Source of the DNA: Podospora anserina | Lineage: Eukaryota | Direction: 5' to 3' | DNA length: 64,000 nucleotides | Assembly: GCA_017654855.1 (NCBI GenBank) | Contig: CM030334.1 | Location: 3,658,001 to 3,722,000, forward strand | Made by a program: the position numbers and the translations under genes | The notes under the pieces: generated by a model | Databases searched by the model: none | What the model saw: the letters and a program-made list of their open reading frames with translations, nothing else | Told to the model about the DNA's origin: nothing | In this document: in pieces, positions 36,301 through 58,879 of the stretch | How positions within the stretch are numbered: the stretch's first letter is position 1 | Layout of the letters: each line of letters opens with the position of its first letter

Positions 36301-37400
36301 AGTAAGATCTTTTAATACTTAAAGACGGCTAGTAAATATAATTATTTTAAACCTCGAAATTAACGCTACGTTAATATCTTTAATATACTATAATTTTTAA
36401 TCCTAACCATTATAGTTAATAGTTTTTCGGAAAAAGTTTTTAGTTTAAATATAGTAAAACCGAATAATATTTTATATTTAAAAATCGATAATAAATTTAT
36501 ATAAATTAATAAAACGCTCCGTAAAGTTACCCTTTAAGTTAAGCTTTATATTTTAAAGTAATAATAATAATTTTATTATAATAAAATAATATATTTATAA
36601 CGTAACGTAAATAAATTTATCCCGGTTCGCTTTTTTAATAGCGGCGGGGTTCTTTAGGAGGAGGAGTACGAGGGATATACTTATTATAACGATAGAGGCG
36701 TATAGTAGGTCTTTAATAATATTTTTAATATAGTTTTCGACCTATTCTATAATTCCGGCGACTTTTATTATAATATCCTAAAAAATAATCTCGTATCTTA
36801 ATAGTATTATACTAACCTTTTTATTTTCTATATACTTTAAATTAAGTTCCGTTATTTTTTTTAATTTCTTTCGACGTACGATCGGATCGTTTTAGGGGAC
36901 TTAATTCGTAATTTTAATATCGTTCGTTTAATTCGACGCTAATTAGGATATAAATAAAATTATATTTTTTTAAATTAACGCGAACGAAATAATTTAAGCC
37001 GGGTTAATAATATACCTTTAATAAGTACTTTAAATAAAAATTATTTATATTTAGTAATTTGATCGGGCTTTTTTTCCTTAAGAGTATCGTAGGCTCTATC
37101 TTAAAGAGAGGTATCCGTAACTAAGTTTTCTCCGATCTTTACTATTTAGCTATTTATTACCGTTTAAGGTACCCTTGCGGCCTTATCGCTAATATTACTT
37201 AGAACGGCTAATGTTTTGTTTAAAGGGGTAGGCGATATTATTAGAGTAGAGGTTTAAGAGGTATTTATCGTTAATTGCGAGAGTAAAGGGGTTACTATAG
37301 TCGATAAAGCGGCTTGCTTAGGGCGAAGAACGGAAATTAAAGTTTATTAATAGGGGAAGGAGGGTTTACCGCTAATCCGTACCTTCTAATGAATTCGCTG
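33340..37400 (-). pseudogene. RIP-inactivated NLR of the NWD/HNWD family (NACHT_N + NACHT + WD40)
   Basis: De-RIP-readable SL*DRAYDTLK (NACHT_N, ~37090), ITDPYNDKSYIE*VKGGFL (~36100-36160), Walker A RLL*IKGDPDKGKT (~35980-36030), WD repeats, and C-terminal NVL*LLLEY (originally VLWLPPEY). Confidence 0.9.
33656..34411 (-). repeat. Six near-identical 126-bp WD40 repeats of HET-E/HNWD type, open frame
   Basis: TLEG(H/Y)GxxV(W/L)SVAFSPDGQRVASGSxDxTIKIWDTASGSxTQ repeated six times, GC-rich, no stop codons. Confidence 0.97.
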
Positions 37401-38450: not shown

Positions 38451-39822
38451 GAGGGCACAAGTCAATCGGGTGGTGGACAGGACCGAAACTGTGGTCTAGA
38501 TCTCCCGGTTTCTATAGATTACACATTTTATTCGGGCAAAGGTAAACCTGATTTTCAGAGTCGTTTGCAAGTTACCTACCTTAATCATATTAGTCATATA
38601 TCTCCTCAATGAGACATTGTGATATGATCTCAGGGTGACCAGGTTCCCTCAAGCCATACTGATCTACTGTACTCCAGTGACTGATACTAATAAGTATTTT
38701 GACATCCGCATCAGCATCCCATTGCCTACCTGCTTGAGTAATCTTGCACCGCGCAAAATGAAGAACCTAAGTGTAAAAGCCGTGATATAAAGAACCTGGT
38801 CAGCGAGGGGACTGTAAGTTTCTCTGGCTTTGCAGTGTGTGATACGCAGTCAGGATCATGAACCATGACTCTATAGCAGTAAAATGAAGCTCGGATATCG
38901 GTACTGCATACTAAGTAAGCTAACCACCTCTACCTTATTATCATGTTAGTAACCAAGCTCAAACAAAGGATCAATGATGTTAGGACAGAATCCCAGGCTC
39001 GGCAATAACCTAGAGCAATTATAAGAACTTCAAGATAGTAATTTTACCGTAAAGTTTAATATAGACTAACATCTCCCGTCCTTTAAGTTTCTGACTTTTG
39101 ATAGAGGTCAGGCGGGACCCACTTTACTGCCCCTGAGCCCCTGAACGTCGTTTGTTAATATACCTAAGCTACTCAAATCTTGAACCCCTTCAATCACACT
39201 CTATCCTAGAAAAACTGTCCCAACGTCTTGAACTCAACGACCAGGGCATAGAATAGCACCAACCATCGGTCTTTGTAAACTATCCCTATCCCTAAGCCTG
39301 GGTATCTACCATAAGGCCAAGCTTAGTAGCATTGGAACCCCGCAAAACACACCCCGCACTTCCCTAAATGCCAAGTGCCGCATTCAGGGGTCCAAATAGA
39401 TTAAATAATCAACGTTAGACCTCCCGCAAGGCGTCCGTAATGCCCTAAACCACTAAAGACCGCTAAATGTAAGGTATTCCGCTTTAAACCCGAGATTAGG
39501 CTGCACGCTGAACCTCGCGATGACGGTAGACGGATGACGGGAAGCTTCATGTTTGCGGGGACCCCGCAATTAATTCACCGTACTAAGTCGCGAGCTGGAT
39601 TAGAGAATACTGGGGATGCCTGATGTGCCGACGCGAATACCAGCGTTCTATTAATACAGGAAACTCACGATATCAGAATGGGCTCAAGTCCACCATCACA
39701 CCCTCGCTCATTTGATACCCTATTTCCCTTCGGCTCATATTTTTATGCCAATCCCTCCTCTGTCTTGCATCTTTGAACCCATCCTCAACCTTTTCCGTTC
39801 CACCAAGACCACCACATCCACC

Positions 39823-41090
39823 ATGTCTTCTTGCAACAGCAACAACAACAACAAGAAGATCTGCATTGTTGGTGCCGGCCCGTCTGGCCTAGCTCTTAGT
39901 GCTCTCCTCGAAAAGTAGGGCGGTTGGGACTACGTTATTTATGAAAGCAGTGCTAAGGATGTCCCACCTCGTGGTAGCTGCCTCGATCTCTACCCTGGCA
40001 GCGGTTAAAGAGCGTTAAAGGACGTTAGTGTCTTTAAAGAGTTTAAGAAGTACGCCCGTTACGGTAATACTACTATCTATCGCCTCTTTAGCCATAAGGG
40101 CGAGAATTTCTTTGACTTTAGTGAGGGCCGTAATGCCCCTAAGATCGACCGCTGGGCTTTTAGAAAGGTCCTCCTTAGTGGTATCCCTAAAGAGAAGGTT
40201 TATTAGAAGAAGCTAGTTATTAGTACTACCTGTAACGAGAACGGGTAAATCGTTTTTAATTTTGCTAATAGAACTATTATTTCGGGGTTCGGGCTTATAG
40301 TCGGCACCGATAATACTTAATCTAAAGTACGGTATTTAATAAGAAATCCCTCGTCGATTATTTCCCTTCCGCTCTAGAAAATTTTAGCTACTTAAATATT
40401 AATAACGCTCGATAAGTAACCGACGCGAAGCTATAATATAGTAATAATTTATTTATTACTACTAAAATCCTCTCTAGCGGTCTATATTATAAAAAGATAA
40501 AGGAACTTTACCGTATAAAGTCTATAATCGTTATAGGTAAAAGTATTTATATATTTAATAGTAAATAAGGTAACGGGTATTACCGTATTAATATCGGTAT
40601 TCCTAGCCCCGAGAACTTTACTGACGCCGGTCTCGTCGATATTAAAAATTAAGACGCGTTTAAAAAATACTTTTTAGGAAATAACCTTTTTAACCTTTAC
40701 TCGGATAAAATAAAGGAGATTATTAATTAAAGTTAAGGTCCCTTTAGATTTTAGATTATATATTACTTCCCTATAAATAATCTTAATTAAAAAACTATCC
40801 CGGGCGTAACGTTAATTAGCGATATTATTTATATTATAATACTATTCGTTAGTAATAGTGTTAATTGCGTTATAAGAGATACGATTATCTTTATTAGAAA
40901 GTTAAAGGAATTGGGCGTTAACGAGGAAGTTATTATTGTTTATAAGAGGGAAATGTTCCCTTTCGTTATTAATATTATTACGAGAAGTCTTTAGAGCTAA
41001 AAAATGTTTTTTAAAAAGGAGGCTCTTAAAACCTTTATTAAGGTTATAAGCTTTAGGAAGTTTTTAATTAATACGATTAACTATATTTAA
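39823..41090 (+). pseudogene. RIPped FAD-dependent monooxygenase
   Basis: ICIVGAGPSGLALS, LIVGTDNT*SKVR (originally VGADGAWSKVR) and GVTLISDIIY..FVSNSVNC (originally IGDAAH..PFVGDGVN). Confidence 0.88.
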
Positions 41091-41559
41091 TAATAATTTT
41101 TATTTTATAATATCTTTATTACTTTTTCTATATTTCTTTATCTTTATAATATTATAATTTTAATAGCGATACTTTTATTCTAGTTTAGTATTAATATAGG
41201 TTAAGGGTATCGAGGATTTTAATCCCGGATAAATTTAATTTCCTCGTAATATAATCCCGGACTAATAGTGGATTTACTACTTTACTCGATAGGCTAACTA
41301 AACTACTATAATTAAGACTAATACCGTTAAAGTAAGTTTTTTAACGTTTAGGGCTGAGAACCTACTTAAACTTATCCAAGAAAATAGAAAGGTATATAAA
41401 ACATTACGGCACTTAGTGCTAATACTATTTACAGTACCCTTATTATAAAGGGTTACTAGTCCACGGTTAAAACTTCGCGAAGTATACATAATATTTATTA
41501 TCGGTTATAAAAGATTCCTTATTTAATTCTTCCCTACGATATACCGCCCACTATTCCCA

Positions 41560-42190
41560 ATCACATTAACAATCCTCACGCTTCTTTTAGCTTCTTCTAA
41601 TAAATCGAGTTTTTATACCGGCTAAGCCTCTACCTAATAACTGGACGCTTTTTAAGAGTCTTCTCATCCTCCCTACTCTTAACCCGTGCTAGCCACTCTT
41701 TAATATTAATATCCACGCTAATTAAGTTCGTTATATATTTTAGTATCTTTATAAACTCTAAAGCTTTATCCGCTATATTAAAGTTATTAACCTGCATCTT
41801 AAACTTATTTCTATCCGGATTAAAGTAGTATATCGAGGTGCTTATACTATGGTTAACAGGCCAGTGGGGCAGGATACCGCGGGCCTTTTTTTACTCGTAG
41901 TTAGTAATAAAATCTTCGAGAAAGTTAAATATAAAAGCGATATAGTAAACTATTACTATTATAGGGCGCTTATCGGCTAGGATCTATTTATAATTATTAT
42001 TTTACATAATAACTATTCTATAGTGCTCTTCGTCCTACTAGATAAAGCTAGCTTTAGCGTTTTAAAGTACTTTACGTTTATCGAAAAAATCGAGGTACTA
42101 TTTAACTATAACCTCGAACTTTTTAGGGGTTATTTTAATACCGAAGTGGCCGATAAAGAAGGGACTAACGAGTTTCTCCGTAATTACTAT
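41560..42190 (-). pseudogene. RIPped VOC/glyoxalase-family protein (BphC-like extradiol dioxygenase annotation class)
   Basis: DEEHYRIVI, YIAF, and GILPHWPVNHSISTSIYYFNPDRNKFKMQVNNF (originally NHGMSTSMYYFDPDGNEFEMQVDNF). Confidence 0.8.
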
Positions 42191-42609
42191 ATTAAAGTAT
42201 TACGTAATTAGGCTAAATAAGTTACGAGATATAGCGGTTATATAATTAGTAATAGCGATTATATAATTTTAATATAATATTCTTTAAAATATATTAATAT
42301 AGAGATACCTCGTTTTATTAAATTAATAGTTAACCGTAATATACTAAAGCGGATTTAGTCGTTATTACCTAGAGTCTTATAGGGTACGGTAATAAGGTAA
42401 GTATTTTAATTTAGTACTTTAAGGCCCGTAAATACCCGCCATAAGCTATTAGGCGGATCCGATCTATCGCCTGAGGGGAGGGGAAGACGGTTTTATAATA
42501 GCGATAATATTAAGATAGATCTTACTCGAACTTTAAGTTTGGAGCTATTTCTAGCTTACACCTTTATTATTAATTTTTTTATATTAAAAGTTATCGTTAT
42601 ATCCGAATA

Positions 42610-44230
42610 GATCCCTATTCTCTAACACCTAACTATTAGGCTAATTTATAGGGTAATAAGGAAAGTCGGTATTACATAGTTTCTTAATATTTAATATACA
42701 ACCTTAAAAAATCGCTTTTTATATACTAAGCTTTTAAAGTCGTACCCATTAAACTACCCCCGTATCTAATATAATATCTTTAATATAATAACCCTCGCGC
42801 CTATTTCATTAAGCCTAGCGAACGGCTACTAATAAAAGTATATATTAATTTAATAGTCTTTAAAGTTTCTAGAGTTTAAGTAATTAAATACGGAATATTT
42901 AATACTTAATATCGCTATACTTAATTTCTAAGTAAACGGTTTTAAATAGTTAGTTTTGGCCCTTATTTATAGTAGTGCCTTTACGACGGGAAGTAATTTT
43001 TATCTATAGTATAATCTCGTTCGTATCGTTTAAAAAAGTATTAAAATTAAAAAACTAATTATTATTATAAATATTAAATAAAATTTATTTATTAAAATTA
43101 AAAACCTTAGGTTATTAATATTACTTTAATTACCGATTAAATATCCTTAACTTCCTTTACTCTTCTACTATAAAGGCTATAAACTATAAGCTAAATAACG
43201 GCCTTAATGATTAAAAATAAAGCTTACTTTAAATTAAATACTATATTATAGGGTTCGGTAGTAATAAGTACCGCGTAATTTATATTAACGAGAGTTCGGG
43301 GGCGGTATCGGGTACTTTCTATCTCCACTCTAAAAAGCTATTATTTAACTAACTGATTTCGATGAGCGGTTCCTCTCCAGTTAAAGCTAAGTAACTAGAA
43401 TTTATTAAAGGGTTATTTAAAAGGGTATTATAGCTTTTTAATATTTTAGAAATTAACGAGACGGCCTAAATTTAATAACTATTAACGGTCCCGATAGAGG
43501 ATATTAGGGAAAAGATTATATGTAAAGTACTAATAGTGCCTATTATCGATAGCGATTTAATTTTAAGAACTATATTTTATACTTAGATAGTTAACTTAGC
43601 TCGGATAGTAAAGTTATTTTTAGGAATATAATAGTATAAGCGAATTATATTTAGCGATTATAAAATAAATAATAACGTTTACGGCCTAAAATTAGTTATT
43701 AAAGTAAATATAATACTTAAGACTATAGCGATTTTCCTAGCTACTACTCTAGATCCTATCGACCGAAAGCTAGCGCCTAAAATCATCTCTAGGTATAGCC
43801 TTAACGCTTCCGCTATTATTAACTTATAAAAGTTTTTTAAAGTTATTCTTAACCTCGTAACCGATATTTACTAGGTTTAGAGTAAAAACTTTCGTTAAAT
43901 TTTAGTCGTAGGCCGGGCTAAAGGCATTCCTATACTACTTTAACGTTCCGAACCTTTAGGATGGGCCGTGGAAAGGCTATACGACGTATATCCTTAATAT
44001 CGTATTTATCCTATAGAACTACCGTAAATTTCTTTTTATTAATTAGTAAAAGGTAAGCGACTAGTAAACCGAGGACGCTATTACTTTTATCTATAACGAG
44101 GCTCCTTAGCCAGCATATAAAATAGGGGCACAAGAGGGCGCTATAGTGTATTACGCTCCTAAGTAGGGTAAAGAGGACTAGTCTCGGTTTATTTCTGGCG
44201 AGATTCCTAAAGAGATTAGGCGAAGAGATA
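42610..44230 (+). pseudogene. RIPped type-B carboxylesterase
   Basis: GIT*FLNI*YTTLKNRF, GFGSNKYRVIYINESSGA (originally GFGGD..GESSG) and FNVPNL*DGPWKGYTTYILNI (originally NPWDGPWKG.ATHILD). Confidence 0.8.
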
Positions 44231-44739
44231 TTTTGTAGAAGCTTATAAAGTAAGAGATGCTGGACAAGGTTATAGACGCTTGGGACTTCTTTATAAAGGG
44301 CCCGAAATAGGAAAAAAAAAGGAGTAGCCTAGATTTGCTTCGATAGTTTCTTAATAGATGTCATCGCCTTGTCTTAGACTTATTTATTACATACCGTCAC
44401 AGTAATTAGTTCCCCATTGTGTTTCCCGCATTTGTCGGAGAACTATCCTTGCAGGCCTAAACTAGCCATCGCTCCCTAGCATAGTACTCGGCGAGCTAAA
44501 GTCCGCTTAACCCGAGTATACCGGCGCCGACGCTAAACCTGTTCTCCACATAACCTCTATAATACTTAGCGGTGTGCTTTTTTACCCCGCAATCCTAGGG
44601 CTTACAGGTACTATTATAGTTATATTTGTAAGCCCCGAGCTACTAAGTTTCAAGTTTTAATAGTATTCTATCTACCTACCTTAAGGCCGGGAAATATAAT
44701 TTATATTTACCGTAACGAAACGATTGCGATTTAACGCTT

Positions 44740-47240
44740 TAAGCGTTAATAGTTTAGGTCTAACGCCTAAAAGACTTACTATATATAAACGGGCCCCCTT
44801 AGTATGCGAGGAGTGTAGGGTAAGAAAATGCCGGTGCGATAGAGTAATTCCCTATTACTTTAGCTATAAAAAGAAATTTTTTAATTATATATACTTTACG
44901 GATATTTAGGAAAAGACTTAGTAATATAAGTAAATGCTTAACCGATATCCTTTTTAATTATATAGTTAATTATTTATTTAATATAATTCGCTCGTTAAGG
45001 TTTAAATTAAAAAAACTTAAAGAATAGACCCGGCTAGCCGATTAAAAGAGTAAAGCCGAGTTTAGTATAACGGTAGAAAATATAATTATTATTTTAGATT
45101 AGTATTAAAAGAATTAGGTACCTCCTAACTTAAAAGTAACCGCCGAGCCCGTTAATACTTTATATTATAGTGTTAATAATACTATACTACTAGTACCGCC
45201 GATAATATTTATTTTAATTACTATTAACGTAAATACTTCGTCCGTACTTAACCGGTAATTACTAGAGTTAACTTTTACCGCAAATAAACCTTTGTCCTAG
45301 ATCGGACCTTTTCTTAGGATTACGGTTAGTCTATTAAATAAAATAGCGGCGCCTCCTACTCCTTAAGTATATTCCTATAACCGTCTGTTCGGAGTCGGTA
45401 CTATTATATAGTCTTTATTATTATATTGATATATTAATAAGCTTATAGACCTATATTTTTACCGCCTTTATCGTATATATTTTATTTTTTATTAACCTAC
45501 GTTTATAAAGTAATATCGATAATTATAGGAACTATTATAAATAAATATAGAAACTTACTTTAACCTATATAAATAAAAGAGCCTAGTTAAAACCTTCCCG
45601 GCTACCGTTAATACTATCTTTATACTAACTTCTTAATTTACCCCGGGGTCCAATACGGAAAAAAATAAAATTAAGGCCAGTAATTTCTTTAATATAATTT
45701 AAAAGTTTAATTTACTTAAGATTATTAACGAAGAGGTTAATATTAAATTAGTCTAACTATTTTTACTTATAGGCTTCTATCTTCAAAGTATAAAGTAATT
45801 TTTAAAATATTAAAATATTATTAATTTAACTATTAAAATAATATAAAATATAAATTTATATATAAATATATACGATATTCGGAAGAAAGGGCTATTACTA
45901 TATTACCCTAGTTAGTTAAAGGAAAAAATACGTATAAAAGTCTAATATAATTATATATTTTTAAACCGAGAAATCTCTATATCGTTTAGTAAGCTACTTA
46001 TAATATTTAAAGGTAACTAACTAAAGCTTCCGGAGGCCATTAATAACGAATACTTTTCTAAAGTTAAGGGCAAACGAAATACTTAATTAAGTAACTATCC
46101 TAATTAAATCTCTTCCTATATCGAGACCATTAAGCTCTATAAGTTTCTTAATTAAATATTGGATAGAGAAAAAGATAGAGCGGAAACCCTAATAAACATC
46201 TACTCTAATATACAAGCCTTACTTAATCTAAATACTAGGATTATAGAATAGCAAAATACACTACCTAGATACCTTTAGTATAATAATATTATAGAGAATA
46301 GATAGTAAAACCTCGCTTCGACCCTAGGGAGCCTCTTTTTACCGGACTTTTTAAGGTAAGTAAGGCGGCTCTATACACGATTTTTATACGTTAGAGTTCT
46401 TATACTAAAACCGGTACTTAAATAATTCTTTTAAAAATAACGATATACGCTAGTTATTCTATAAGTAAGGGGCAATCCGAGGGTTATGCGGGTATAAGAC
46501 TTTATACTGTCGGATATTACGGTATAATATATACTTTTAGTAAATTCTTTTATTAAATATTTAAATATTTATATTCGTAATTAAAGTTTTATAGCTTAGT
46601 AGTATAATATAAACTATAGGTCCAATTATCCTAAACGCACGTTATAAAGAAATAACTTACTAACGAATATATAAACCTTTATACGTATAGTAGTACCTTA
46701 TTAATAGGCCTACTATACTTATTTAATAAATTTATTATAAAGCGTAATTTACTTAAGCTTTACCTTCGTCGCCTCTCACAGTATACGGCGCTAAGTAATA
46801 TCGCAACTAAATCTTACCACCTTTTATAAGAAAGTTCGAAGCGCCTTCTCCCGGAAAAGGGTGCCTCTAATATATAGATACCTTCTTGCTCCGCGGTAAG
46901 TAATATAGTATAAGTACCCGACCTAGACCTAGCTACCTACCTTAGTTAGCCGATAATACCTACTAGTATAACACCTCTAACCTCGGTTAAGGCTAGAACA
47001 TATATATAGTATTTAAGTCTTTTCCTCGCGCTTCACAGAATATACACCTATCTATAATAAACAATGTCTAATAATAACCTATTACTATCGGCGCTTAACC
47101 CTTTACTTATAGGTTCTATAAATATAATAAATAATAATATTAGTAGCTTAAATAATATACCGGAGTTCTAGGAAATACCTTTTCTTTTTTAATTAGAGTT
47201 TTACTAACTTTATAATTTTACTCTCTCGCAGTTCGAATAA
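44740..47240 (+). pseudogene. RIPped Zn(II)2Cys6 transcription factor
   Basis: KRAPLVCEECRVRKCRCDRVIPYYFSY, where the final Cys residues have mutated TGT/TGC to TAT/TAC. A long degraded body follows, with fungal TF-like segments such as LNREISISFSK. Confidence 0.8.
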
Positions 47241-47369
47241 TACAATTTACGGATAGGCTTCTAAACGATATTATAATAATTAATATAATATTAATATAGG
47301 TAATAACTATAATAAACTACCTATAAAATAGTCTTTCGAAATACTTTAAACCCTAAATATAATTTCGCT

Positions 47370-48761
47370 TAACCCAAAAAAAGTTTAATACTCTTTTATA
47401 TTATTAATTTATAGTTCATTATATAGGTTAATCTCACTTAGAATTTTACGCCCCAGTAACCCTTTAAGCTATATACGGCTCCTCTTACTCTCCTCTTTTA
47501 TCCTTTAAAACTTCTTTTTAATATTACCGTCCTTCTCCCCACTAAAGTTAAAAGTAAAAATACCTACCGCCGAGAACGGTAGGAAATCCTTATATATAAT
47601 CGGCTCGTAAATTATAACCCCCTCTTTTAAAAGTCTATCTATATATATTAACCCCTCTAGCTTATAAGCGCTAGTAACGGCTACCTTATCTTTAATAACC
47701 TAATAATAGAAATATATTAATCTTTCCTTCCTAAAAACCTCTTAATTATTAAAGTACTCGATAAATACCTCCTTTAGTACTTTATTAAAGTTTTTATTTT
47801 CCTTTTTATTCCGACTAATAGCTTTAGCGAGTAAAGTATCGTAGAGCTCTCTACCTTTTTTAATTATAATAGTACCGCGCTATTCTACTTTTCTAAACCG
47901 AGCGGTATACGTTCCGTTAACGGTATAATTAGTATTATTAATAAAAGTAACTCTTTCCTCTAAAGCCTTAAAACTAATTTATCGAAAAAGAATCTCGCAC
48001 TTCCTTTTAGAAGGTCCCTCGATACAGTCTTTTACTAGGAGGCCCTAAGAAATTATTCCTACTTAAACGGTATCGATATTTAGGGTATGTAAAGTAAGGT
48101 AATTAATATATATTAAAGGAAAGTAAATAATATTAGTTATTATTAAGTATTTTTTTTTTAAGGTAAGGTACGTCTTTAAAGGAATAAAGGATCGGAAATA
48201 CTATTTAAAAATCTTAAAAGATTTAGTAATTAGGTTATTAGTATTTTAGGCCGTAAAGTTAATTAAAGTAAAGGTCTCCGTTTAATCGATTAAATCGATA
48301 AGCCTAGAGGAAAAAAGCTATTTAGTAGAGAGGATAAAGGTAGCTATCTCCCGGACTTTCGGGGAGGAGATAAGGTCTGGTCGGAGGACGGTAGTAAAGA
48401 CTCGGAAGGGGTTCTTTCGGAGGGATTCTTCGGTCTAGGGCCGGAAAGCCGTACCGTAGAGGGGAAAACCGATTATTTTAAAGTCGTAGTAGCCGACGGG
48501 GAATATACTTATAACGGCGAAAAGGCGGCTAATTATATATATTTCTTGCTAGGTGCTTAGTTTAATAGCGTTATAGCGCTTAAGCTAAAAGCGAGAGGGG
48601 AGGTCGTTAAGGCTTTAGCCGCGGGACTAGAGGGTAGTAATATCGACTTAGTTAATAATATTTACGAGCTTACTATAGAGGGATACTTCGGTTTTATATA
48701 TTTCTAAGAGGGCCTATACGAAGCGAGTCCGGAGGTAATCTAGATCCTATCTGTACGGTAT
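47370..48761 (-). pseudogene. RIPped DUF1338 / YdcJ-HglS-like 2-oxoadipate dioxygenase/decarboxylase
   Basis: LRTRFV*ALLEIYKTEVSLY (originally FAQALSEMYKTEVPLY), LKRYNAIKLST (LERHGAIRLGT), YINYLTLHTLNID (HINHLTPRTLDID) and EPIIYKDFLPFSAVGIF (PITYEDFLPxSAAGIF). Confidence 0.85.
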
Positions 48762-49775
48762 ATGAGTTTGGAGGCTAAAAAATTATAAAAGGAATATAAA
48801 AATAGTATACGGCTTTAGCTCCTCGTGGAAGGTAGATCCGTTTTATAGGATAATTAAAGGTATTATAAATGTAATATATAATTACTTTTATTAAATATTT
48901 TATAAGATATTTTATAGGATATTCTATAGATTAAATAAGTAAATATTAATATAGAATATATAAGTTAGATAACCGTAAATAATCGCTAAATTAAGTAGTA
49001 AATAAAGGAGATTTATACTTTACTATTAAAATATCGGTTACGAATATATAATAAAACCTTAAATAATAAAGAGCCGGCCTTTTCCGGAAGGGTTATTACG
49101 GTAAAATAAATAATTATATTATACTTATTTTAAAAGGTTATAATAAGGTACGTACTACGTATATTAATATATACTAAGCTTCTAATCTACCCTATATACT
49201 ATTTCCGTACGGTTTATTACGGCTTAAAGTAAGCGGTAATAGTGCGGAACTAAGTATGCCGCTTTAAAGTAAGACCACCGGATTATTATTTATTATTACT
49301 TACGGCTATATAATATATTAGTAAGGCCTATAGTGCTATATAATACCTTGATTTTCCTAATCCTATATTACTTTATATAGTAACGTTTAAGTATAGTTAA
49401 TAGTACTACTTAAAGACTTTAGAGCGGGCTTTAAGCACGTTAAAAGAGAACCCTTTTCTTTATAATATTTAAATTATTTTATAGTAAACTATTTATAACT
49501 TATAGGCTAATAGCTTTTATTACTTTATTATATAAGTTATTAATATTAAGTAGCTGTAAATTAACGACTTTATTAATACTTTTATAAATATTATTTCCGT
49601 ATTTAAGGGCTAAAGTAATATTTTACTTTCTATCGTAGAGACCGGCTTTTAAGCTTAAAGTAACTAGGTAAAACGGGATTTCTATTAAAATATTTTAAAT
49701 ATCAAATATAATAATTTATATTAAAAGGATAGTTAAATAAATATATTATTACTATCAAAACTATTTACTTTATAC

Positions 49776-50566
49776 CTATACAAGCCACTCCTTAAACTAT
49801 ATTACCGCTGTTCTCCGCACCCTCTCGAAACCCTTTACCTTAATAAGGTTCTCTCGGTTACCCTTAATAAAGAAACCGTAGTTTAGGCTAAAGAAATATT
49901 AATAGTTAAAAGGTATACTTAACTTAGGGATTTTAATTATAATGTAAGTTTTAAGTTCTTCGGTAAATTAAAGATTAATTTCGGAGGCGATAATCTATAC
50001 TAATATATTAATATTAGAAATCTCTTCTTTTATTAAGAAAGTTAGGTAAACCGTAGCGATATAGTCGACGAGCGGAGTATCCGACTTAATATTAAGCTAG
50101 AAAGTAGCTTAGCCGCTATAGTAATAGCTAATAGTATTAAACTTACCGTATTAAGTACGGAGGTACTTTATTAAAGAAATTATTTTTAGTTTACGGACGG
50201 CCTTATTATTTTTCTTTATAAAGTTTAGGAGATTAAGTTTGCTTTACTTTACCGGGTTATTAATTAGATTTACGGATAGAATAATACTATTAAAGCTACG
50301 AGATTATTAGCGATAGGAGCTTAAAAATATTATAGAGAGTAGACTTATAAGTTAGGGATATAGACGGTCGCCCTAACCTCTATAGTATAGTTATCGGCGA
50401 ATAACTTTATATTATTAAAGGTCTAACTATATAAATCGTAAATTACGATAATACCTATATCCGGGTTAGAACTAGTAATATAGTATATCTAGCCGCTTAC
50501 CTTAACCTCCTTGCCCTACGGCTCGCCGTCCTACTTAAAGCCCTTTAAATAATATTCGCTTATTAT
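49776..50566 (-). pseudogene. RIPped dienelactone hydrolase family protein
   Basis: SEYYLKGFK*DGEP*GKE (MSECCLKGFKWDG), IYDLYS*TFNNIKLFADNY..VYIPN and ISYYYSG*A (originally GYCYGGWA nucleophile motif). Confidence 0.82.
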
Positions 50567-51009
50567 AATAATTAGGAAAGAATATTTATTAAGTAAAATA
50601 ATTTTTTAATAGTATTTATAAAACTAATAATCGTACGTCGAGTAAAAGGGTAGATATATAAAGTTATATATATACTATTTACCTTATTGTATTTCTATAG
50701 TGGAAGACGGTATTATATTATTATAAAGTCCCGGCGAAATTAGATATATACGGACCCGTAAATAAACTGCTTCCGCTTTACTTCCGCCCTAGATCTATAT
50801 AACTCTACTCGGGAAAGTGGACGCTGTATATAGCTATTTATCCGGGGAGGAATAAAATTTAATAAAAATAATTCGACGTATTTACTATAGTTATACTCCT
50901 TTTAAATACTTTAATTAGATTTTATATCTTTATTTTAGATCTTTAACCGAATTTTATTTAAAATTTTTTATCTCGCTCTACTTATTTAGCGATATTATAA
51001 ACTAATAAA

Positions 51010-52128
51010 ATATTTATCCTAATAATTTAGAGAACCGTAATAGTTAAAGAGATTAGTAACCCCGAGGTTCTTTAGTTTAAGTCCGACTGGGCTATCCTAT
51101 AGTTAACCGAAGGCTAGGTCCTCGTAAAGAATAAGATTTCCGGTATTAACTATATCGATATATATTTCCGTACTAGTCTTTACTTATTACTAAAGCCTAA
51201 AATCCTAAATAAAAAAGTAGCCGGTATAATTATAGTACTCGGGCCGAAGACGGAGGAGTTTAATTTTAAAGTCGGCGATAAAGTTATTTAGCTCGCTAAT
51301 ATTAGTTATACTAAGTACTTTACGGTCCTAGTAGCTAAGACCCTTAAGCTGCTAGATACCGTGTTTTACGAAGATGCCATTGCTAGCTTTATGAGTGGTC
51401 TGATAGTGCTGGCTTTCGCTAGGGACACCTATATAGTTTAGCCTGGTAATTGGGTTTTATTTTATATAACGGTAAGCGGTATTAGGTTTTTAATAATGTA
51501 ATTATTTAAATACGTTGGTACTAAAGTTATTAATATAGTTAGTAGCCTAGAGAAAATTAAATTGGTTAAGAGCCTCGGTGTAAACTATATTATTAATTAT
51601 AAAAGTAAGGAAGGTAAGGATTAGGTTAAGATAATAATGGATATTATTAGTGGGAGAGGCGTCGATGTGGTTTATAACTCTGTTAGAAAGGATATATAGG
51701 AGGGTAGTTTAGCCGTTATTAAAAGGAAAGGGATTATAGTTTAGTTCGGTAACTCTAGTGGTTTTATCCCACTATTACCTTTAAAGTAAGTTTTAATACT
51801 TATCTATAAAATAATCTTAGTAACTAATTAGGTTATAGCCGCCTTATATTAAAGTATATTAAAATTATTAAACTAACTCTATTTAACTATATTACTACCC
51901 GTAAAAAGTTTAAGGGCTATATTAATAAGCTCTTTAGTCTTCTCGCATTTAGCGCACTTAAGGTTAAGATTTATAGCCTATATTTCCTCTCTAATGCTAA
52001 GTAGGTATATATTATAAGTTTATTCTTTTATAAGTAATAAAATAAGTTAAATATTAACTTAACCTAATAAATAGGATTTAAAAGGAAGGAAGACGATTAA
52101 TAAAATTTTAATTAAGGTTTCTAAATAA
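51010..52128 (+). pseudogene. RIPped NADPH:quinone oxidoreductase (zeta-crystallin/Qor, MDR family)
   Basis: VLVKNKISGINYIDIYFRTSLY (originally GINYIDTYFRTGLY), GRGVDVVYNSVRKD and FGNSSG. Confidence 0.85.
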
Positions 52129-52809
52129 AGTAATTTATATTTTTATAAAAAATAAAAAAATCGGTAATAACGTTAAAGTTAAATATAATTTTATTTTAAA
52201 ATACCCGACTTTATTATTATTAAATTATAGGCTACTATATATATAGTTCCTATAGTAATTAAACTTTTTTAATATCCGTTTAACCTAGAAAAAACCTAAA
52301 CTAATTCGAGATCCGTTCTTAATTTACTATCCGGAAACTATATATATTTTTTTAAATATAATAACCGATTTATAAAAATACTAGTACGTTATCCGGCATA
52401 TTTATTTATTTTAAAAAAGGGTAAAAAAGGGATTAACTTAAACCCTCTTAATACCTTTTTTATACTATTATATTAACTATTAATAAAATAACCGGTATAT
52501 CCGGAATAATATTATTATATACCTTAGCTCCGTCAGTATCGCCCCTTCGGGGCAATATAATCTCCGTAATAACGTACGAGCTCCGAGTGTTCGATCTCCG
52601 ATCCTCTAAGCGGGGGGAGAAAGTAGATTTACAGCAGCGGGCGGAATTAAAGTAAGAAAGGGATGTATTATTGGAAAAGGAGTAATTTAAATTAATAAAT
52701 AATAATAATAAAAATTATTATTTAAAATATATTATTAATATTATATTACTTATTTACTACTATCTTATCGTTATTTAAATAATTTTCGTTATTATTCTCT
52801 ATAGGTACT

Positions 52810-53737
52810 ATATCGTCGTTTAACTATCTTATTCGTTTCCGCGATACTATAAGCAATTCTCGCTTTAACGAGCCTAAGATCTTATTAGTATCCGAGTTCG
52901 ATAAAGCTATAGTAAAGGGTACTTTAAAGGCCACCGTTTTCGAGGGCAGTAGCCCCTTTAACGTTACACTAATATCTAAAGCGGTTAAGGTATAGGAAGT
53001 TCTTTCCCTATTAATTATTAAAGATATATTAATTATAAAGTACGTCGGACTTAATTATATTAAATATAATAAAGTTATATAGGATATTTTAAAAATTATA
53101 TTACTAATATAAAATTTTTAATAGTTTAGGAAGGTAACCGCAAGCCTCCTCTATACCCTTCTATTTTTATTAAGCTACGCGCTTTTATTATAGGTTATAA
53201 AGAGGATATCCCTATTCCAAAACTTATTTAAAATAATTAATTCGATTACGAGGGTAAATTAATTATTATTATCGGTAAGACTAATAAAAATATCCTTAAA
53301 GAAAAAGCTTTTAAATATATTATTAGTTTTATCGTTACTAACGATATTTCTATTAAAAAATAGTAGCGTAACCCCGCCTTCGCCGGCGGTATCCCATAAT
53401 AGTGCTTTAGTAAAGGCTTCGATAAATTCGCCCCCGTCGGCCCTCTACTTATCTCCCCCAAAATTATTAATAACGCCGGTAACCTCTAGCTTTAAACTAT
53501 TATTAACGGTAAAGTATAATAAAATATTAATACTAACGATCTCCTTTTTAGTATTAAAAAGATTATTACTTTTATTAGCTAGGGTATTACTCTCGAGGTT
53601 AGTACTATTATTATAATAGGCACACTTACGGGTATTACTATAGATATAAAGGAGCTAAAGTGGCTTAAAAATAATAATATTATTAAAGTTAAGATTAAAG
53701 AGTTAAATAGTATTAAAAATAAAATAGTTTTTAAATA
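52810..53737 (+). pseudogene. RIPped fumarylacetoacetate hydrolase (FAH) family protein
   Basis: LIRFRD..FNEP, YVGLNY, DYEGKL, NDISIKK, GGIP**CFSKGFDKFAPVGP and IIIGTLTGI (originally TGTPAG). Confidence 0.88.
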
Positions 53738-54960
53738 GTAATATATATATTTAATATAATTAAATAAAAATCTATAGAACTAACTTAACTTTTATTATTT
53801 TTTTAATAAAACTACGTTCCGTATAGTTATTATAAATCTATTTATTTTTAAAATACTTTACCGACGTCCTAATAATATTTATTAAGTGCTAAATATTAAA
53901 TATATAAAATTCTTACCGATCGTAATTTACTTTTCCTTTATTGTTTTAACTTTACTTTAAAGATAAGTATAAGTATATAGTTAAGTAAGCTGGATATAAA
54001 AATAAAATTAAATAAATACTATTATATTATAGCGTAGCGTAAAGCGGATATAATAATAAAAATATATTAAAAACCAATTAAATACCTAATATTATATCGA
54101 ATAACTTAATTATAGTTACCGTAACTAGTATTTTTCTAGAAGCGAAAAACTCGGCTTTATACAGGAATTTATCGAACTTAAAGAAAGTAATACTATTAAC
54201 TAAACCCTTTTTACTATAGTAATAGAATATTACTTACTTATTTTCCAATAAAGTTATCCGAACGATCCAATAACTATTAAAATACTTTATAAAAATTATT
54301 TATAATATATAACCGTACCGAAAATAAAACTTTTTATATTTCTTATAGCTACTAAAATTATTTTTCAAAATCTATATATTAATATACTCGCTTCCTTCTA
54401 AAACATATATATTTTCGCACTTAAATTTAACTAACTAAAAGATCGTTAATATAAAATTTAGAAAGTTACTAAGGGATTTTAAATTTACGATTTACCTTAG
54501 AGTACCAATATTCTTTTTATAGTATAAGTAATAGTAAATAAAAATAGCGTTAGGGGTTCCCTAAATAATAAATTTAACGCCTTTATAAAAGCAAGATCCT
54601 TTTATAGCTTTAGCTATTATTACCGATAATAGTAATAACTTAAAATAATAAATAAAATTAATAGTAAAACGGCGTTAAATTAGAGAAATAAAATAAACTT
54701 TACTTTTCTTCTATATCTTAATAAATATAACCCTTATTCCGGGTTCGGGTTAATAGTATACGGATTTTAGGCGGCTTCCAACCCTATCTCCCATTTACAT
54801 ACGGCAAACTACTTCCGGTTATAGGACTAATAATAGTACCGATTATATAAAGAGAATAGTGTAAGGCTATAATTAATATATATTAAAGCGATATCCATTT
54901 ATAATAATAACCTACTATTATTATTACCTTAAAATATAATTAAATAAAACTTAATTTATA

Positions 54961-55960
54961 ATAATAAACCGCGTTAATATTTCCGGGGCTAAGAGCTTAA
55001 CCCTCTTAACACTCTCAATAAAAGACTAGTTCTATACCGACATTGCCTCTAAAAATGTCGAGCCCCTCTGGACCGTCCTTAACAAAATAGTTCCACCAAA
55101 GCTAAACCCTAGCTCGGTAATTACCGCCTGGCCCTATAAAAACCTCCGACCCGTGTTTATATAAAGCGGGATTATCGTTTTAATAGAGAAAGTAAAGCAT
55201 TATATACTTATACTAATAAACCCTACTATATAAGCACCCTACACTACCGACACTATTTACGCCGGTCTTTAGCTTATCCTGCTAGGAGAAACCGCCCCTA
55301 CTTATAGATACGTGGCCTTTACCCTAAGGTTCATCGTTAAAGGATCTCGCGGTTTTACCGCGGTAGAGGGGCAGAAGCTAATAATAGAGTGTAAAAATAT
55401 TATTTTTACCCCGTTTTAGCACTAATATAACTACGGCAATAAAAGTAATAGGCCGATAATATAGTTAGACGGGCTAGACTTACCCGTATACCGCTTCCTC
55501 CCTATAAACTTTATAGAGAATTACGAGGAAGTTAAATATCCTAGTAAATTATTAAATAATAATAACTAAAAGCTCCTCTAGGCTCCGGTATAAACTATAT
55601 TAAATAAGAATAAAGAGACTGAAATTTATATATAATATAATTATAAGTCTAGGGAATATAGGAAGTACCTATCTAAAACTATTTTTAAGTAAGCGGAAAG
55701 AATTAACGCCGGAATTATTATTAAAAAAGTAAGGGAGACGGTATTATTTATATATTATATATATAAAGGAGAGGGGTACTCGACTATTATTTCGCTAGAG
55801 GGAAAGGAAGAGAAGGTTTAATAGAAAGGTAAAGATATTTTTACTATTCTAGCGTGAAGTATAATCTTTTATACTTATACGTAAGAGTATAGGAATATAT
55901 ATTTATTTACTATTAATAATAAATTAATAATTAAGTCTTTAGAATTATATAAAAAATAAA
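54961..55960 (+). pseudogene. RIPped gentisate 1,2-dioxygenase-like bicupin
   Basis: NVEPLWTVL, APYTTDTIYAGL*LILLGETAPTYRYVAFTLRFIVKGSRGFTAVEG (originally GLQLILPGETAPAHRH..ALRFIVEG) and *LDGLDLP. Confidence 0.9.
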
Positions 55961-56039
55961 AACTAAAGTAATATTATATCTTAACTAAAAATAATAATTA
56001 TATACGTACTTTAATATCTAACCGTATATAAAGCCCCCT

Positions 56040-57248
56040 TATTTCTACTTCTTAATAAATAATACTTTTACTAAAGCCTTAGCTTAAGTTAATTAAACCG
56101 GACGCCCCAGTATAATAAATTAAAGACTAAAGTCGGCCAGCAGTTCTTCAGCAGATAGACCACTATCCTTAATAGCCTAATACACCTCTTAATCGGTTCC
56201 AAAAGTAGCTATATACCAGATATTCTTCTACGTTTTAATTATTTCTTTAGCTTCGCTCGAATAACTTTAAATATTTTTTATAATTATATAAAACGAAGAC
56301 CTTTTCGCGTAACTATACTTTAATTTATATATATAAACGTTAAAGAACCTAAATATTATTTATAATAAATAAACGATCCTCTATATCTCGATCTTATATA
56401 ATAATATAATAAATATTCCTCTTAAACGCAAATACTCTAAAGCCAACACAAAAGAACCGTTTTGCAACTTAATTAACTCCCGCTTCTCTCGGTAATTTAC
56501 TCTCTCTTAAGTGCGGAGGACGTACCCGTTATAAATTATAATATTATATTACTCGTCGATAATAAATTAACGAGGTATAAACTTATTATAATCGGGGTGC
56601 GAAGCGGGAATCTCTTTAATCTTTATACTAAAATCTTCTATTAGTATTATAACGTTATAATAATTAATATTAATAATATTATTATTCTCGTAAAGCAATA
56701 AAACCTTATAACCGCCCTACGAAAAGGGAAAGGTATAAACTTGTACTCGAAAGTTAGGATCGTTTAGGGCTATAATAGCGGCAAGAAAGCTACCTAGTGC
56801 AGCATAGACATCCAGAATCGTACTAAGCTTAATAACTATAGTAAAGTAACTATCTATAGTATTATAAAGCTCGGAGGTAATTTTCTATATAAGGCTAAAG
56901 TAAAACTAAGAAGAATATTAATCGTTAATATTATTAATATTAAAGCGTTAGGCCTAAAAAAATCTATCCCTAGCTAGGTTCTCCTAACCCTTTATAAATA
57001 ATATAAACCAATTATATCTTAAAATAAATAAAGTTATATATATAGATAGAGAGAAATATAGAAAAATAATATACCTACTAGCGAAGACGATTAAGCCTTC
57101 GGAACTCTAGAACTTTCTTTCGTAAGTACGGGATAATAACGCTCTTATAGTCCGGCGTAGTGTCCCCTATAGTGGTTAAAAGGATATATATTTCTCTAGG
57201 ATTAATTACGGTTAAGGCGCTATATTCCCAGTTTACTCCTCTATCCAT
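56040..57248 (-). pseudogene. RIPped FtsJ-like SAM methyltransferase
   Basis: ILDVYAALGSFL (originally LDxCAAPGGF), *GGYKVLL, IIYNGYVLRT*ERVNYREKRE and AKRSSFY. Confidence 0.7.
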
Positions 57249-58879
57249 TTCGTCTAAAGTTACAACAAAAGGCGGTGTAAAGAGTTAAATTATTATTCAA
57301 ATAAAGAAGTTAGCGGTCTTCCTTAGAAAAAACAACCCCCCAGCGCCTTTAACAATTATAGCTATAGTATAGTATTTGCTGTGGCCTACCGTGAGGCGGA
57401 CTTATGTAATAAAATGGACTGGCTAATGTCCTTCCTTACGTTACATTCTAAGCACCTAGGTTCGGCAAATTAAGCGTCTTAGTTAGCTAGAGACTACAGA
57501 GCAAGCTGCTTCACTAATAATAGTGCGCTAAGCAGGTTAGCAATAAACAGAGGTCGAGTAATAGCTATGGGCAAGTGCAGTGAAGAAATGCATCGAGGCC
57601 TACAGTGAAATTTGTTATTTTATTAGGCGAATCGAATTTTACAAACGCAGGGTAAGGTATGCTCTGCCACTAGCCGTTTGCTCATTGATAGCAGTATCTG
57701 CTTAGGTACCTATCGAAGTACTTTTAAAAAACTCGATATCATCGATATTATTCATATATTAAGTCTAACAGAAATGGAGGAAACGCTATTAGATTTCTTT
57801 CCTCTATTTTCATCTCCACTAATTACTAAATATAACCTCTCTATTAGTCTATACACCTCCCGTTCCGACTCAACTATAAGCTCCAACTACCCCGAGCAAA
57901 TATTTTCCTATCTTTATAATATTATTATTAGTAACTTAAATAATATTCTCGAGCTAAAACCTTACTTTAAACGAGGGAGCTGTAAAATCCTTAGTAATTT
58001 TACTAAAAAATACTCTACCTTTATAATAGCTAACTTCACTTATAAAAATTCTTAATATTCTAAAGCTAGCTAAAGGAGCGGAAAGGTCACTATTTTAATC
58101 CGGGGCTACGAAAATAATAGATATTATACTACTATTTTTAACTAGCGATACGAACGATATAAGAAATTTAATAATTTAGAGTTAGATAAATCTACCTACA
58201 TTAACCGAGTCTATTATCAACTCAAAAAATAGGCCGGGATTAGCATAGAAATGCGAAGCTCAAGGGAACCGAAAAAAATACCGCCTTACAAAAATAACCT
58301 ATATAAAGGGTATAGAAAAGGGTTTTATAAAGGCTAATTATACGTAAATAACGGTATAATGTAAAGTTTATAAATATACGGTATATATACTTAAATGCCG
58401 ATAGGATAGTAAGGGTCTTAGATAAAACAAAAGTCCTATTAATTTTAAGAAGTTATTTATATTTTACATTTATATATACTTCAGTATTTTATTACTGTTA
58501 GTCAAATCTTAGGTTAAATAAATTACCCGGTATTAATATAAAAGTATCCCATTAATTTTTAATTAGTTTACGCGAAACTTCTAAGCATGCCCGACAGGGA
58601 TCTATACTAAATATTATTATATTCGTCTAACAAATCTTATAAGTCTATTATTACTAAGCTTAAAAGCCGGCTACAGTATTACTTACGTAGGTTACTACCT
58701 TTTTCATGTTCTTTAGCTATATCGCCGTTTAACTACGTCGGAACCTTTATTTGTTATATACAATAGGGACTACAGGTTACGGTAATTTCGATTATAGAAT
58801 TATTATTCCGATATTTAATAGCTATATATCTAAGAATCTAGTAGGTTAATAGGGACGTATAAAGAGCTTACTTAAGCTC

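Follow-up and report, generated by a model that had tools for sequence, protein, structure and literature searches.

The region spanning 39.7–56 kb of the window (the whole 64,000-nucleotide stretch of Podospora anserina DNA that was analysed), possibly reaching further to the right, is very probably an ectopic chromosome 3 duplicate of the gene cluster Pa_1_21750–Pa_1_21840 that has been inactivated by RIP. Positions 39745–55968 consist of heavily RIP-mutated pseudogenes of ten families (Table 1), and the segmental duplicate measures at least 16 kb. A preliminary description of this DNA had counted nine genes between 39823 and 55960; the first gene begins at 39745, a small minus-strand gene at ~54240–54614 had been overlooked (three genes were listed between the dioxygenase and the HglS-like gene, where protein accession numbers place four on chromosome 1), and RIP mutation continues to the end of the window at 64000.

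Table 1 Features of the dead cluster and of its surroundings, in window coordinates.
Feature	Position	Strand	Basis or remark
NWD-type NLR gene (NACHT_N, NACHT, WD40), RIP-mutated, left context	32500..37300	-	Pfam
FAD monooxygenase pseudogene, copy of Pa_1_21840	39745..41087	+	14 in-frame stops
Onset of RIP-type amino-acid changes	39898	.	inside FAD monooxygenase pseudogene
VOC/glyoxalase-fold pseudogene, Pa_1_21830 by position	41651..42217, approximate	-	PDB names and position
Carboxylesterase pseudogene, Pa_1_21820 by position	42700..44300, limits approximate	+	PF00135
Zn2Cys6 regulator pseudogene, Pa_1_21810 by position	44805..47300, end approximate	+	motif and position
HglS/DUF1338 pseudogene, copy of Pa_1_21800	47412..48773	-	20 in-frame stops, alignment gap-free
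Dienelactone hydrolase family pseudogene, Pa_1_21790 by position	49770..50642, upper limit approximate	-	PF01738-bearing matches
Zinc-type quinone oxidoreductase pseudogene, Pa_1_21780 by position	51109..52100, end approximate	+	ADH_N and ADH_zinc_N
FAH-family hydrolase pseudogene, Pa_1_21770 by position	52850..53729, start approximate	+	FAA_hydrolase
Tenth, small pseudogene, Pa_1_21760 by position	54240..54614, approximate	-	GFA-like by eye
Gentisate 1,2-dioxygenase pseudogene, copy of Pa_1_21750	54847..55968	+	21 in-frame stops
More RIP-mutated DNA, right of cluster	55969..64000	.	RIP indices

That the stretch is RIP-mutated, as first proposed, was confirmed by both RIP indices and RIP reversal. 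In 2-kb bins, positions 1–32000 have a GC content of 0.48–0.55, a TpA/ApT ratio of 0.45–0.72 and a (CpA+TpG)/(ApC+GpT) ratio of 1.11–1.42; at 40001–64000 the corresponding values are 0.25–0.38, 1.40–1.64 and 0.07–0.49, with CpA and TpG depleted in the AT-rich tract. Dinucleotide counts change over between 39901 and 40001. An N-terminal alignment of the FAD monooxygenase pseudogene shows codons 1–51 to be exactly those of QC764_121840, with RIP-type changes starting at codon 52.

For three pseudogenes, RIP was reversed at the amino-acid level by permitting only T-to-C and A-to-G restorations, and the products were compared with the chromosome 1 proteins. Identity rose from 61–87% to 98–100%: from 82% to 99.5% in exon 1 and from 62% to 100% in exon 2 of the FAD monooxygenase, from 65% to 99.1% in the HglS/DUF1338 gene, and from 61% to 99.5% in the gentisate 1,2-dioxygenase. 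Three control substitution rules with equal degrees of freedom gained at most 2.0 points, and the opposite-direction rule at most 0.7. RIP-type changes account for 417 of the 424 amino-acid differences, leaving seven that are not. Among 464 inferred sites the context is CpA at 312 (67%), CpT at 136, CpC at 10 and CpG at 6. The three genes carry 14–21 stops apiece, with 54 stops standing in place of Gln (36), Trp (15) or Arg (3), and show no frameshifts (0–1 gaps).

Family calls, made on translations in which stops were read as X, upheld all nine families named at the outset, seven of them by Pfam, PDB or protein matches and the VOC and Zn2Cys6 genes mainly by position. The FAD monooxygenase pseudogene (exon 1, 39745–40341; intron, 40342–40415; exon 2, 40416–41087) finds PF01494 on 12 of 12 protein-search matches, the best being QC764_121840 (E 2e-86), but against Pfam alone it reaches E 0.0012, below the cut-off. 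The HglS/DUF1338 pseudogene matches PF07063 over model positions 1–384 of 386 (E 2e-88) as well as PDB entries 6w1g and 2rjb (E ~1e-65); its closest protein is P. comata VBB73809, with PODANS_1_21800 in the same protein cluster. All six PDB matches of the gentisate 1,2-dioxygenase pseudogene, whose start codon is now ATA, bear that name (best E 9e-37), and its closest protein is P. comata VBB73804, clustering with PODANS_1_21750. FAA_hydrolase was found at 53130–53729 (E 1.1e-32, model positions 23–214 of 214), ADH_N and ADH_zinc_N in a single frame at 51109–51288 (E 2.7e-5) and 51496–51789 (E 4.4e-12), and PF00135 at 43125–43565 (E 5.4e-7; 29.4 bits for a cut-off of 27; model positions 138–291 of 515). 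The dienelactone hydrolase pseudogene gave no match in Pfam or PDB searches; a representative search yielded 83 matches at E<=0.001 over query residues 112–291 (best 1.1e-28), and PF01738 DLH is present on 18 of the best 20 of these 83.

The two calls by position are suggested mainly by collinearity with Pa_1_21830 and Pa_1_21810. The VOC pseudogene has three non-significant PDB matches named glyoxalase or FosA (E 0.4–1.2) and no match in the Pfam search, and the Zn2Cys6 pseudogene has a Cys-rich motif at 44805, with Zn_clus at E 0.14, below the cut-off. The small tenth pseudogene, without a match in the Pfam search, is probably GFA-like (zinc-binding carbon-sulfur lyase family); a Cys/His pattern recognised by eye after RIP reversal occurs at a chance-level rate, 1.5 per kb against 0.4–0.9 per kb in control stretches, which we judge no better than chance.

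The best matches of the three reconstructed genes are 1_21840, 1_21800 and 1_21750 (contigs of 1.1–9.0 Mb), and six of the ten pseudogenes were assigned to chromosome 1 counterparts by family and order. In P. comata (VBB73804/09/13), P. pseudoanserina and P. bellae-mahoneyi, accession numbers step by five from dioxygenase to HglS and by four from HglS to FAD monooxygenase. Published tables list genes 21750–21830 as Cupin_2, unknown, FAA_hydrolase, ADH, DLH, DUF1338, Fungal_trans, COesterase and Glyoxalase, and matches of gene 21840 bear PF01494; the order 21750–21840 is the window order reversed. The published annotations are FAA_hydrolase for Pa_1_21770, a putative quinone oxidoreductase for Pa_1_21780, DLH for Pa_1_21790, a transcriptional activator (Fungal_trans) for Pa_1_21810, COesterase for Pa_1_21820 and Glyoxalase or putative biphenyl-2,3-diol 1,2-dioxygenase for Pa_1_21830, and Pa_1_21760 carries GO:0016846. 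The native genes have signals in published expression tables. As had been predicted, intact co-located homologues exist: the set is annotated intact on chromosome 1 in P. anserina and its six sister species (all seven of the complex), and the same genes also lie together in other Sordariales and in Aspergillus. Protein records suggest that donor and dead copy are present in one assembly.

The intact left flank is Podospora chromosome 3: its open reading frames fall, by exact look-ups, into protein clusters 3_10380, 3_10400, 3_10470, 3_10450, 3_10430 and 3_10420 (contigs of 3.0–4.2 Mb), and the dead cluster lies beyond Pa_3_10420. The NLR gene of the left context (NACHT_N, E 1.5e-15; NPHP3_N, E 5e-9; WD40, E 5e-79, six repeats) has WD40 repeats at 33542–34426, a 126-bp tandem repeat free of RIP mutation. 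To the right, 55969–64000 contains no Pfam family at E<=0.01, the single match at E<=1 within 55980–59600 being Zn_ribbon_3CxxC (E 0.04); this DNA may or may not be part of the same duplicated segment. The dead cluster is nested among other RIP-mutated DNA. Words sampled from the tract were present at fractions of 0.78–1.00 in 17 of 24 listed runs (five studies, one species label), one of which may be the source of the sequence itself.

Under duplication followed by RIP, a chromosome 1 segment of ~16–20 kb would have been copied into chromosome 3, and premeiotic RIP would have detected the duplication and attacked cytosines of both strands by deamination until divergence of the copy exceeded 20%, killing all ten copied genes and removing the ATG of the dioxygenase. 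RIP ordinarily mutates both copies, so an untouched donor calls for an extra assumption: an outcross may have brought an intact donor together with the mutated copy by re-assortment, or mutated donor alleles may have been purged by selection, the spare copy taking the load. The unmutated homologous codons 1–51 of the FAD monooxygenase pseudogene are likewise not what RIP of the entire repeat, in its simplest form, would predict. An intact copy accompanied by RIP-degraded ones has a precedent in the 70-kb region of Melanconium sp., as presented in the available text of Vogan et al. 2021 (PMC8092012).

Arrival of the chromosome 3 copy from another lineage, where it was present or mutated beforehand, would explain the untouched chromosome 1 cluster, whether by introgression through hybridisation or as cargo of a Starship/Enterprise-type giant transposon; we consider this improbable. 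It would suit an intact donor facing a copy saturated with RIP changes and surrounded by other RIP-mutated DNA, and in FAD exon 1 the P. pseudoanserina allele is closer (one non-RIP difference) than the S mat+ chromosome 1 model (three, plus a 5-residue indel), although the S mat+ gene model may merely be annotated differently. The HglS and dioxygenase copies, however, are equidistant from alleles of several species. According to the same available text (PMC8092012), Podospora has giant transposons with host genes, and the Enterprise-like Melanconium region, with one annotated copy and three at ~30% GC, likewise sets a large, intact multigene segment beside RIP-degraded copies; the Melanconium region opens with a tyrosine-recombinase gene and shows target-site duplications, but neither feature was found in the window. 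At the thresholds used, 31700–64000 contains no tyrosine-recombinase or transposase domain, and the palindromic target CTACCTAGGTAG is not present anywhere in the window.

The preliminary description had instead seen a cluster erased en bloc; read as the organism's only copy, destroyed in place, it would mean loss of the pathway. All ten window genes are indeed dead by RIP, and a self-comparison of the window in purine/pyrimidine space detected the WD40 tandem repeat and no second cluster copy. Yet PODANS_1_21750, 1_21800 and 1_21840 are recorded in the same species and are 98–100% identical to the RIP-reversed window copy, the flank is chromosome 3 and not chromosome 1, and the native genes have expression signals; what was erased is a redundant copy whose original is annotated intact, and loss in place is very unlikely. 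Ordinary decay or a compositional isochore without RIP would fit the low GC taken alone, but is refuted by the one-way changes (the opposite-direction rule again), the CpA context, the TpA/ApT and CpA+TpG values and the frameshift-free genes, and is hardly credible.

The native cluster may be a C6-regulated, gentisate-type catabolic cluster, in which the FAD hydroxylase would produce a gentisate-like diol, the cupin dioxygenase would open the ring and the FAH enzyme would hydrolyse the product, with the esterase, DLH, quinone reductase, VOC, DUF1338 and GFA-like enzymes in side steps. The gentisate core recognised initially (gentisate dioxygenase and FAH hydrolase) is present, together with the FAD monooxygenase and C6 regulator, and this core is already known as the fungal gentisate catabolism cluster. 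As far as the available text of each source goes, Greene et al. 2014 define that cluster by an FAD salicylate-hydroxylase-like enzyme, gentisate dioxygenase, fumarylpyruvate hydrolase and a C6 factor (PMC3914699), and 'model 2' of a bioRxiv study (10.1101/343673) is the same gene set; both share with Podospora the co-located gentisate 1,2-dioxygenase, FAH-family hydrolase, FAD monooxygenase and C6 factor. The ten Podospora genes, in contrast, include no stilbene dioxygenase, aldehyde dehydrogenase or MFS transporter, and the available text of neither source names DUF1338/HglS-like, DLH, quinone oxidoreductase, carboxylesterase, VOC or GFA-like members. The suggestion that the combination was undescribed fails for the core; the extended set was found in neither source, and our literature search located no printed account of such a set with DUF1338 and no paper joining 'DUF1338' and 'gentisate'. 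Despite its mutations, the DUF1338 copy retains full-length likeness to the HglS/YdcJ 2-oxoadipate dioxygenase/decarboxylase (6w1g, 2rjb), but it is dead, with 20 stops, and the Podospora gene sits in a gentisate-type cluster rather than a lysine-catabolism context.

Segmental amplifications make up ~1.5% of the P. anserina genome according to the main text of Espagne et al. 2008 (PMC2441463), where one of them is given as 20 kb and its gene content is not stated. Like those duplications, the present tract is a host segment with C:G to T:A changes, nested among repeats; in their worked example, a triplication, 69% of differences are non-RIP, compared with 7 of 424, counted at the amino-acid level, here. 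The dead cluster copy offers a clear instance of a process that is already known.

[quoted passage not shown] Over positions 1–32000, the same measures are about 0.50–0.55, 0.45–0.72 and 1.11–1.42. Within the mutated tract lies a block of pseudogenes, three of which, corresponding to an FAD monooxygenase, an HglS/DUF1338 protein and a gentisate 1,2-dioxygenase, have their best matches in chromosome 1 genes with protein records from the same species. For each codon at which the block differs from these proteins, we checked if T-to-C or A-to-G reversion yields the residue found on chromosome 1. At the protein level, and for these three of the ten genes, such reversal accounts for 417 of 424 amino-acid differences and raises identity from 61–87% to 98–100%, while three control rules applied to the same bases (the opposite direction and two transversion rules) gain at most 2.0 points. 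The three genes, at this level, show the C:G-to-T:A-only pattern expected of a RIP relic. The expected preference for the CpA context is likewise present, as TpA excess and CpA/TpG depletion, and CpA is the context of 312 of the 464 inferred RIP sites (CpT 136, CpC 10, CpG 6). Fifty-four in-frame stops across the three genes replace Gln, Trp or Arg residues, the start codon of the dioxygenase pseudogene is now ATA, and alignments to the chromosome 1 proteins contain 0–1 gaps and hence no frameshifts. Since the differences between copy and donor are almost purely of the RIP type, they point to a young duplication. Tracts of GC skew are barely wider than in a control stretch (SD 0.25 vs 0.20).

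Of nine intact open reading frames in the leftmost 32 kb, eight had exact counterparts in the protein collection, six of them in clusters with Podospora chromosome 3 members (3_10380, 3_10400, 3_10470, 3_10450, 3_10430 and 3_10420). The annotated order of the corresponding genes on chromosome 1 is exactly that of the window, reversed, and in three sister species the accessions lie 5 records from the dioxygenase to the HglS gene and 4 from there to the FAD monooxygenase. Self-comparison of the window in purine/pyrimidine space (36-mers) revealed neither a second copy of the block nor a repeat common to the RIP-mutated blocks. The block is shown to be an inactivated copy at an ectopic site, saturated with RIP changes. 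It is best read as a large, clean RIP relic of a segmental duplication, a feature of known kind; Espagne et al. 2008 (PMC2441463) describe one segmental amplification of 20 kb. The preliminary description of a cluster erased by RIP is confirmed for the block itself and partly supported as an interpretation; the pathway is probably not lost, the chromosome 1 original being annotated as intact. Between 0.78 and 1.00 of the sampled words of 44001–54000 occur in 17 of 24 listed runs (five studies, one species label), one run being maybe the source and no RNA run being listed among those with the words; seven runs guessed to be RNA contain almost none of these words and are uninformative on expression.

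Features of the window and their chromosome 1 counterparts. Pa_1_21840, Pa_1_21800 and Pa_1_21750 are best protein matches; annotations are from rows seen in published supplementary tables (PMC3689799 Table S1, PMC6709928 file 5, PMC3869774 file 2).
Feature	Window position	Strand	Chromosome 1 gene	Chromosome 1 annotation
NWD-type NLR gene	32500-37300	-		
WD40 tandem repeats of the NLR gene	33542-34426			
Ten-pseudogene block	39745-55968		Pa_1_21840 to Pa_1_21750	
FAD monooxygenase	start 39745; exon 1 39745-40341		Pa_1_21840	
VOC protein			Pa_1_21830	Glyoxalase
Carboxylesterase			Pa_1_21820	COesterase
Zn2Cys6 regulator			Pa_1_21810	Fungal_trans activator
HglS/DUF1338 protein			Pa_1_21800	DUF1338
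Dienelactone hydrolase (DLH)			Pa_1_21790	DLH
Quinone oxidoreductase			Pa_1_21780	quinone oxidoreductase
FAH-family hydrolase			Pa_1_21770	FAA_hydrolase
GFA-like frame	about 54240-54614	-	Pa_1_21760	unknown function
Gentisate 1,2-dioxygenase			Pa_1_21750	cupin, gentisate dioxygenase
Stop-free frame	57627-58055	+		
C-rich, then G-rich block	59400-60250			

Our data suggest that the cluster would have been duplicated from chromosome 1 to chromosome 3, with RIP then mutating the copy. The expectation that both copies of a RIP relic be mutated does not hold, as the chromosome 1 genes compared here are annotated as full-length. An intact donor calls for re-assortment or selection and does not speak against RIP having acted on the chromosome 3 copy: re-assortment following an outcross may have joined the intact donor with the mutated copy, or selection may have purged mutated donor alleles, the spare copy taking the mutations. 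A comparable case is reported for a 70-kb region of Melanconium (PMC8092012), where a single intact copy is accompanied by three of about 30% GC. Alternatively, the copy may have come from another lineage or aboard a giant transposon. Exon 1 of the FAD monooxygenase agrees in the window copy with P. pseudoanserina (poly-Asn length, and Trp in place of the Cys of S mat+) and departs from the chromosome 1 model of S mat+, which could reflect differing gene models or hint at the copy's origin; domain scans of the RIP-mutated DNA found no recombinase or transposase domain, and the Enterprise target site CTACCTAGGTAG is absent from the window.

On its left side, the proposed chromosome 1 duplication reaches beyond the point where RIP-type changes begin. 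The FAD monooxygenase gene, previously taken to begin at 39823, starts 26 codons upstream of that ATG; its codons 1–51 show no difference from the chromosome 1 type, changes of the RIP type setting in at codon 52, about nucleotide 39898. Being homologous but unmutated, these codons imply that homology extends to the left of RIP onset. A mild TpA excess is seen at 38.8–39.5 kb. Further left, an NLR gene (NACHT_N, NACHT and six WD40 repeats) is heavily RIP-mutated in its N-terminal and NACHT parts (GC 0.17–0.31), which places the block among clustered RIP targets, an arrangement that Espagne et al. report for repeats at large. The 126-bp WD40 tandem repeats of this gene (GC 0.62–0.64) are without RIP signature, which could result from repeat homogenisation or conversion from paralogues.

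To the right of the dioxygenase, RIP-mutated DNA continues to 64000, with no recognisable family in the domain scans. The sole Pfam match at E ≤ 1 within 55980–59600 is Zn_ribbon_3CxxC (E 0.04), and a search to the right of the dioxygenase for a SAM-methyltransferase motif, looking for Pa_1_21740, returned one unconvincing match. A 142-residue stop-free frame in a patch of weaker RIP (GC 0.36–0.43), with no Pfam match at E ≤ 1, could belong to a gene neighbouring the cluster on chromosome 1 or could have arisen by chance. Amid RIP-mutated DNA, a C-rich low-complexity block is followed by a G-rich one, GC skew passing from -0.78 to +0.79 within 500 bases; a repeat search around it (58800–60800) gave low-complexity matches only and no clear inverted repeat.

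The nine family assignments made earlier from the sequence are all correct, seven with direct statistical support; those of the VOC protein and the Zn2Cys6 regulator are weak and derive mainly from position. In a six-frame scan with stops read as X, Pfam at E ≤ 0.01 recovers four of the nine: carboxylesterase, HglS/DUF1338, quinone oxidoreductase (seen as two alcohol-dehydrogenase-type domains) and FAH hydrolase (FAA_hydrolase at E 1e-32, lying 1.1 kb upstream of the dioxygenase). The HglS/DUF1338 pseudogene matches PF07063 over nearly its full length (positions 1–384 of 386, E 2e-88) as well as solved HglS (PDB 6w1g, E 1.6e-65). Although the dioxygenase region has no Pfam match at E ≤ 1 on stop-read-through frames, all six of its PDB sequence matches are named gentisate 1,2-dioxygenase (best E 9e-37), and PF07883 occurs in 120 of 120 homologues among the matches listed. 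Pfam alone gives a sub-threshold Rossmann match for the FAD monooxygenase, and PF01494 is found in 12 of its 12 protein-search matches. For the dienelactone hydrolase, an exhaustive representative search yielded 83 matches at E ≤ 0.001, PF01738 being present in 18 of the 20 best; the segment itself has no PDB match at E ≤ 10. Neither this region nor the VOC region matches Pfam at E ≤ 1 on stop-read-through frames; searched as exact segments, the VOC, DLH and GFA-like parts give no match at E ≤ 10, and two other minus-strand frames of 41000–56000 have no PDB match at E ≤ 0.01. Three PDB matches of the VOC protein, named glyoxalase or FosA, are non-significant, and the regulator shows Zn_clus at E 0.14 in the window.

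The earlier count of nine genes missed one. Chromosome 1 carries a small gene, 21760, between the FAH hydrolase and the dioxygenase, and the corresponding gap in the window holds a minus-strand frame, bringing the number to ten. After RIP reversal, this frame has a Cys/His pattern that, judged by eye, is similar to that of the GFA family; the rate of GFA-like motifs in the gap is no better than chance.

The cluster of Greene et al. 2014 (PMC3914699) and 'model 2' of a 2018 preprint (bioRxiv 10.1101/343673) share one core with the block: a gentisate 1,2-dioxygenase (bicupin), beside it an FAH-family, putative fumarylpyruvate hydrolase, an FAD salicylate-hydroxylase-like monooxygenase and a C6 factor, the last weak in the window and seconded by the annotation of Pa_1_21810. 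The stilbene dioxygenase (sdoG) and MFS transporter of the Greene cluster are absent from the window scans and from the chromosome 1 rows read, and the six extra genes of the ten-gene set are named in neither paper in the parts seen. The view that this combination had not been described therefore stands for the extra genes, within those parts, and fails for the core. No paper in the literature searched has 'DUF1338' and 'gentisate' together, and Pa_1_21750, 21760, 21770, 21790, 21800, 21810 and 21840 have no main-text mention there.

The preliminary description named a lack of clustering elsewhere as evidence against a cluster; homologues do co-occur in other genomes. HglS-like and dioxygenase homologues apparently share a contig in 12 cases, with longest-contig sizes matched by eye, of which five are small (13.6–45 kb): Triangularia setosa (contig 24446), Aspergillus keveii (27471), Cercophora samala (40063), Rhypophila decipiens (45462) and one further contig (13641). 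By the same size matching, an FAD monooxygenase homologue apparently lies on the same contig in T. setosa, T. verruculosa and R. decipiens, and the HglS-like and dioxygenase locus tags of Cercophora sp. LCS_1 are four apart. Judged from such sequence records, the HglS–dioxygenase pairing is conserved well beyond Podospora. A metagenome scan with the HglS alignment gave 80 loci, four of them fungal-like (L001–L004, 64–66% identity), with no dioxygenase or FAD monooxygenase orthologue nearby and a weak cupin in L002 only.

Close homologues of the HglS-like protein (tag ..0400140) and, in another strain's annotation, of the FAD monooxygenase (tag ..0400050) occur in the basidiomycete yeast Cutaneotrichosporon cavernicola, their locus tags being nearby, and rank among the Sordariales matches, which may mean that part of the cluster was transferred horizontally. 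The native HglS-like gene of P. pseudopauciseta is annotated as two models (265 + 200 residues), and the 265-residue form recurs in several further assemblies; the gene may be broken in some lineages. Native cluster genes show expression signals in rows of published supplementary tables: Pa_1_21800 is up 7.5- to 8.4-fold and Pa_1_21830 about 3-fold in a PaRid deletion strain, and for Pa_1_21790 a rise of about 41-fold is given for late ageing.

It is conceivable, though on balance we consider it unlikely, that the native ten-gene cluster encodes an undescribed gentisate-type branch in which a DUF1338/HglS decarboxylase and a GFA-like zinc protein work with the dioxygenase and the FAH hydrolase. 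For example, a DUF1338/HglS-family oxidative decarboxylase could supply the pathway from an aryl-2-oxoacid, and a GFA-like zinc protein could isomerise maleylpyruvate with a thiol.

As a natural record of RIP, the block is unusually clean: a whole ten-gene cluster was copied and killed almost purely by C-to-T change while the donor was apparently spared. Given the chromosome 1 DNA, the ancestral sequence would be known for at least 16 kb, along which RIP load, its context, strand tracts and the behaviour of edges would be measurable. The block also raises the question of how the genome keeps one copy safe, and it cautions in annotation against taking a cluster in AT-rich DNA for 'lost' when it may be a spare copy. 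Of more interest as a lead is the native cluster, Pa_1_21750 to 21840, an expressed, conserved and uncharacterised gentisate-type cluster with a DUF1338 enzyme.
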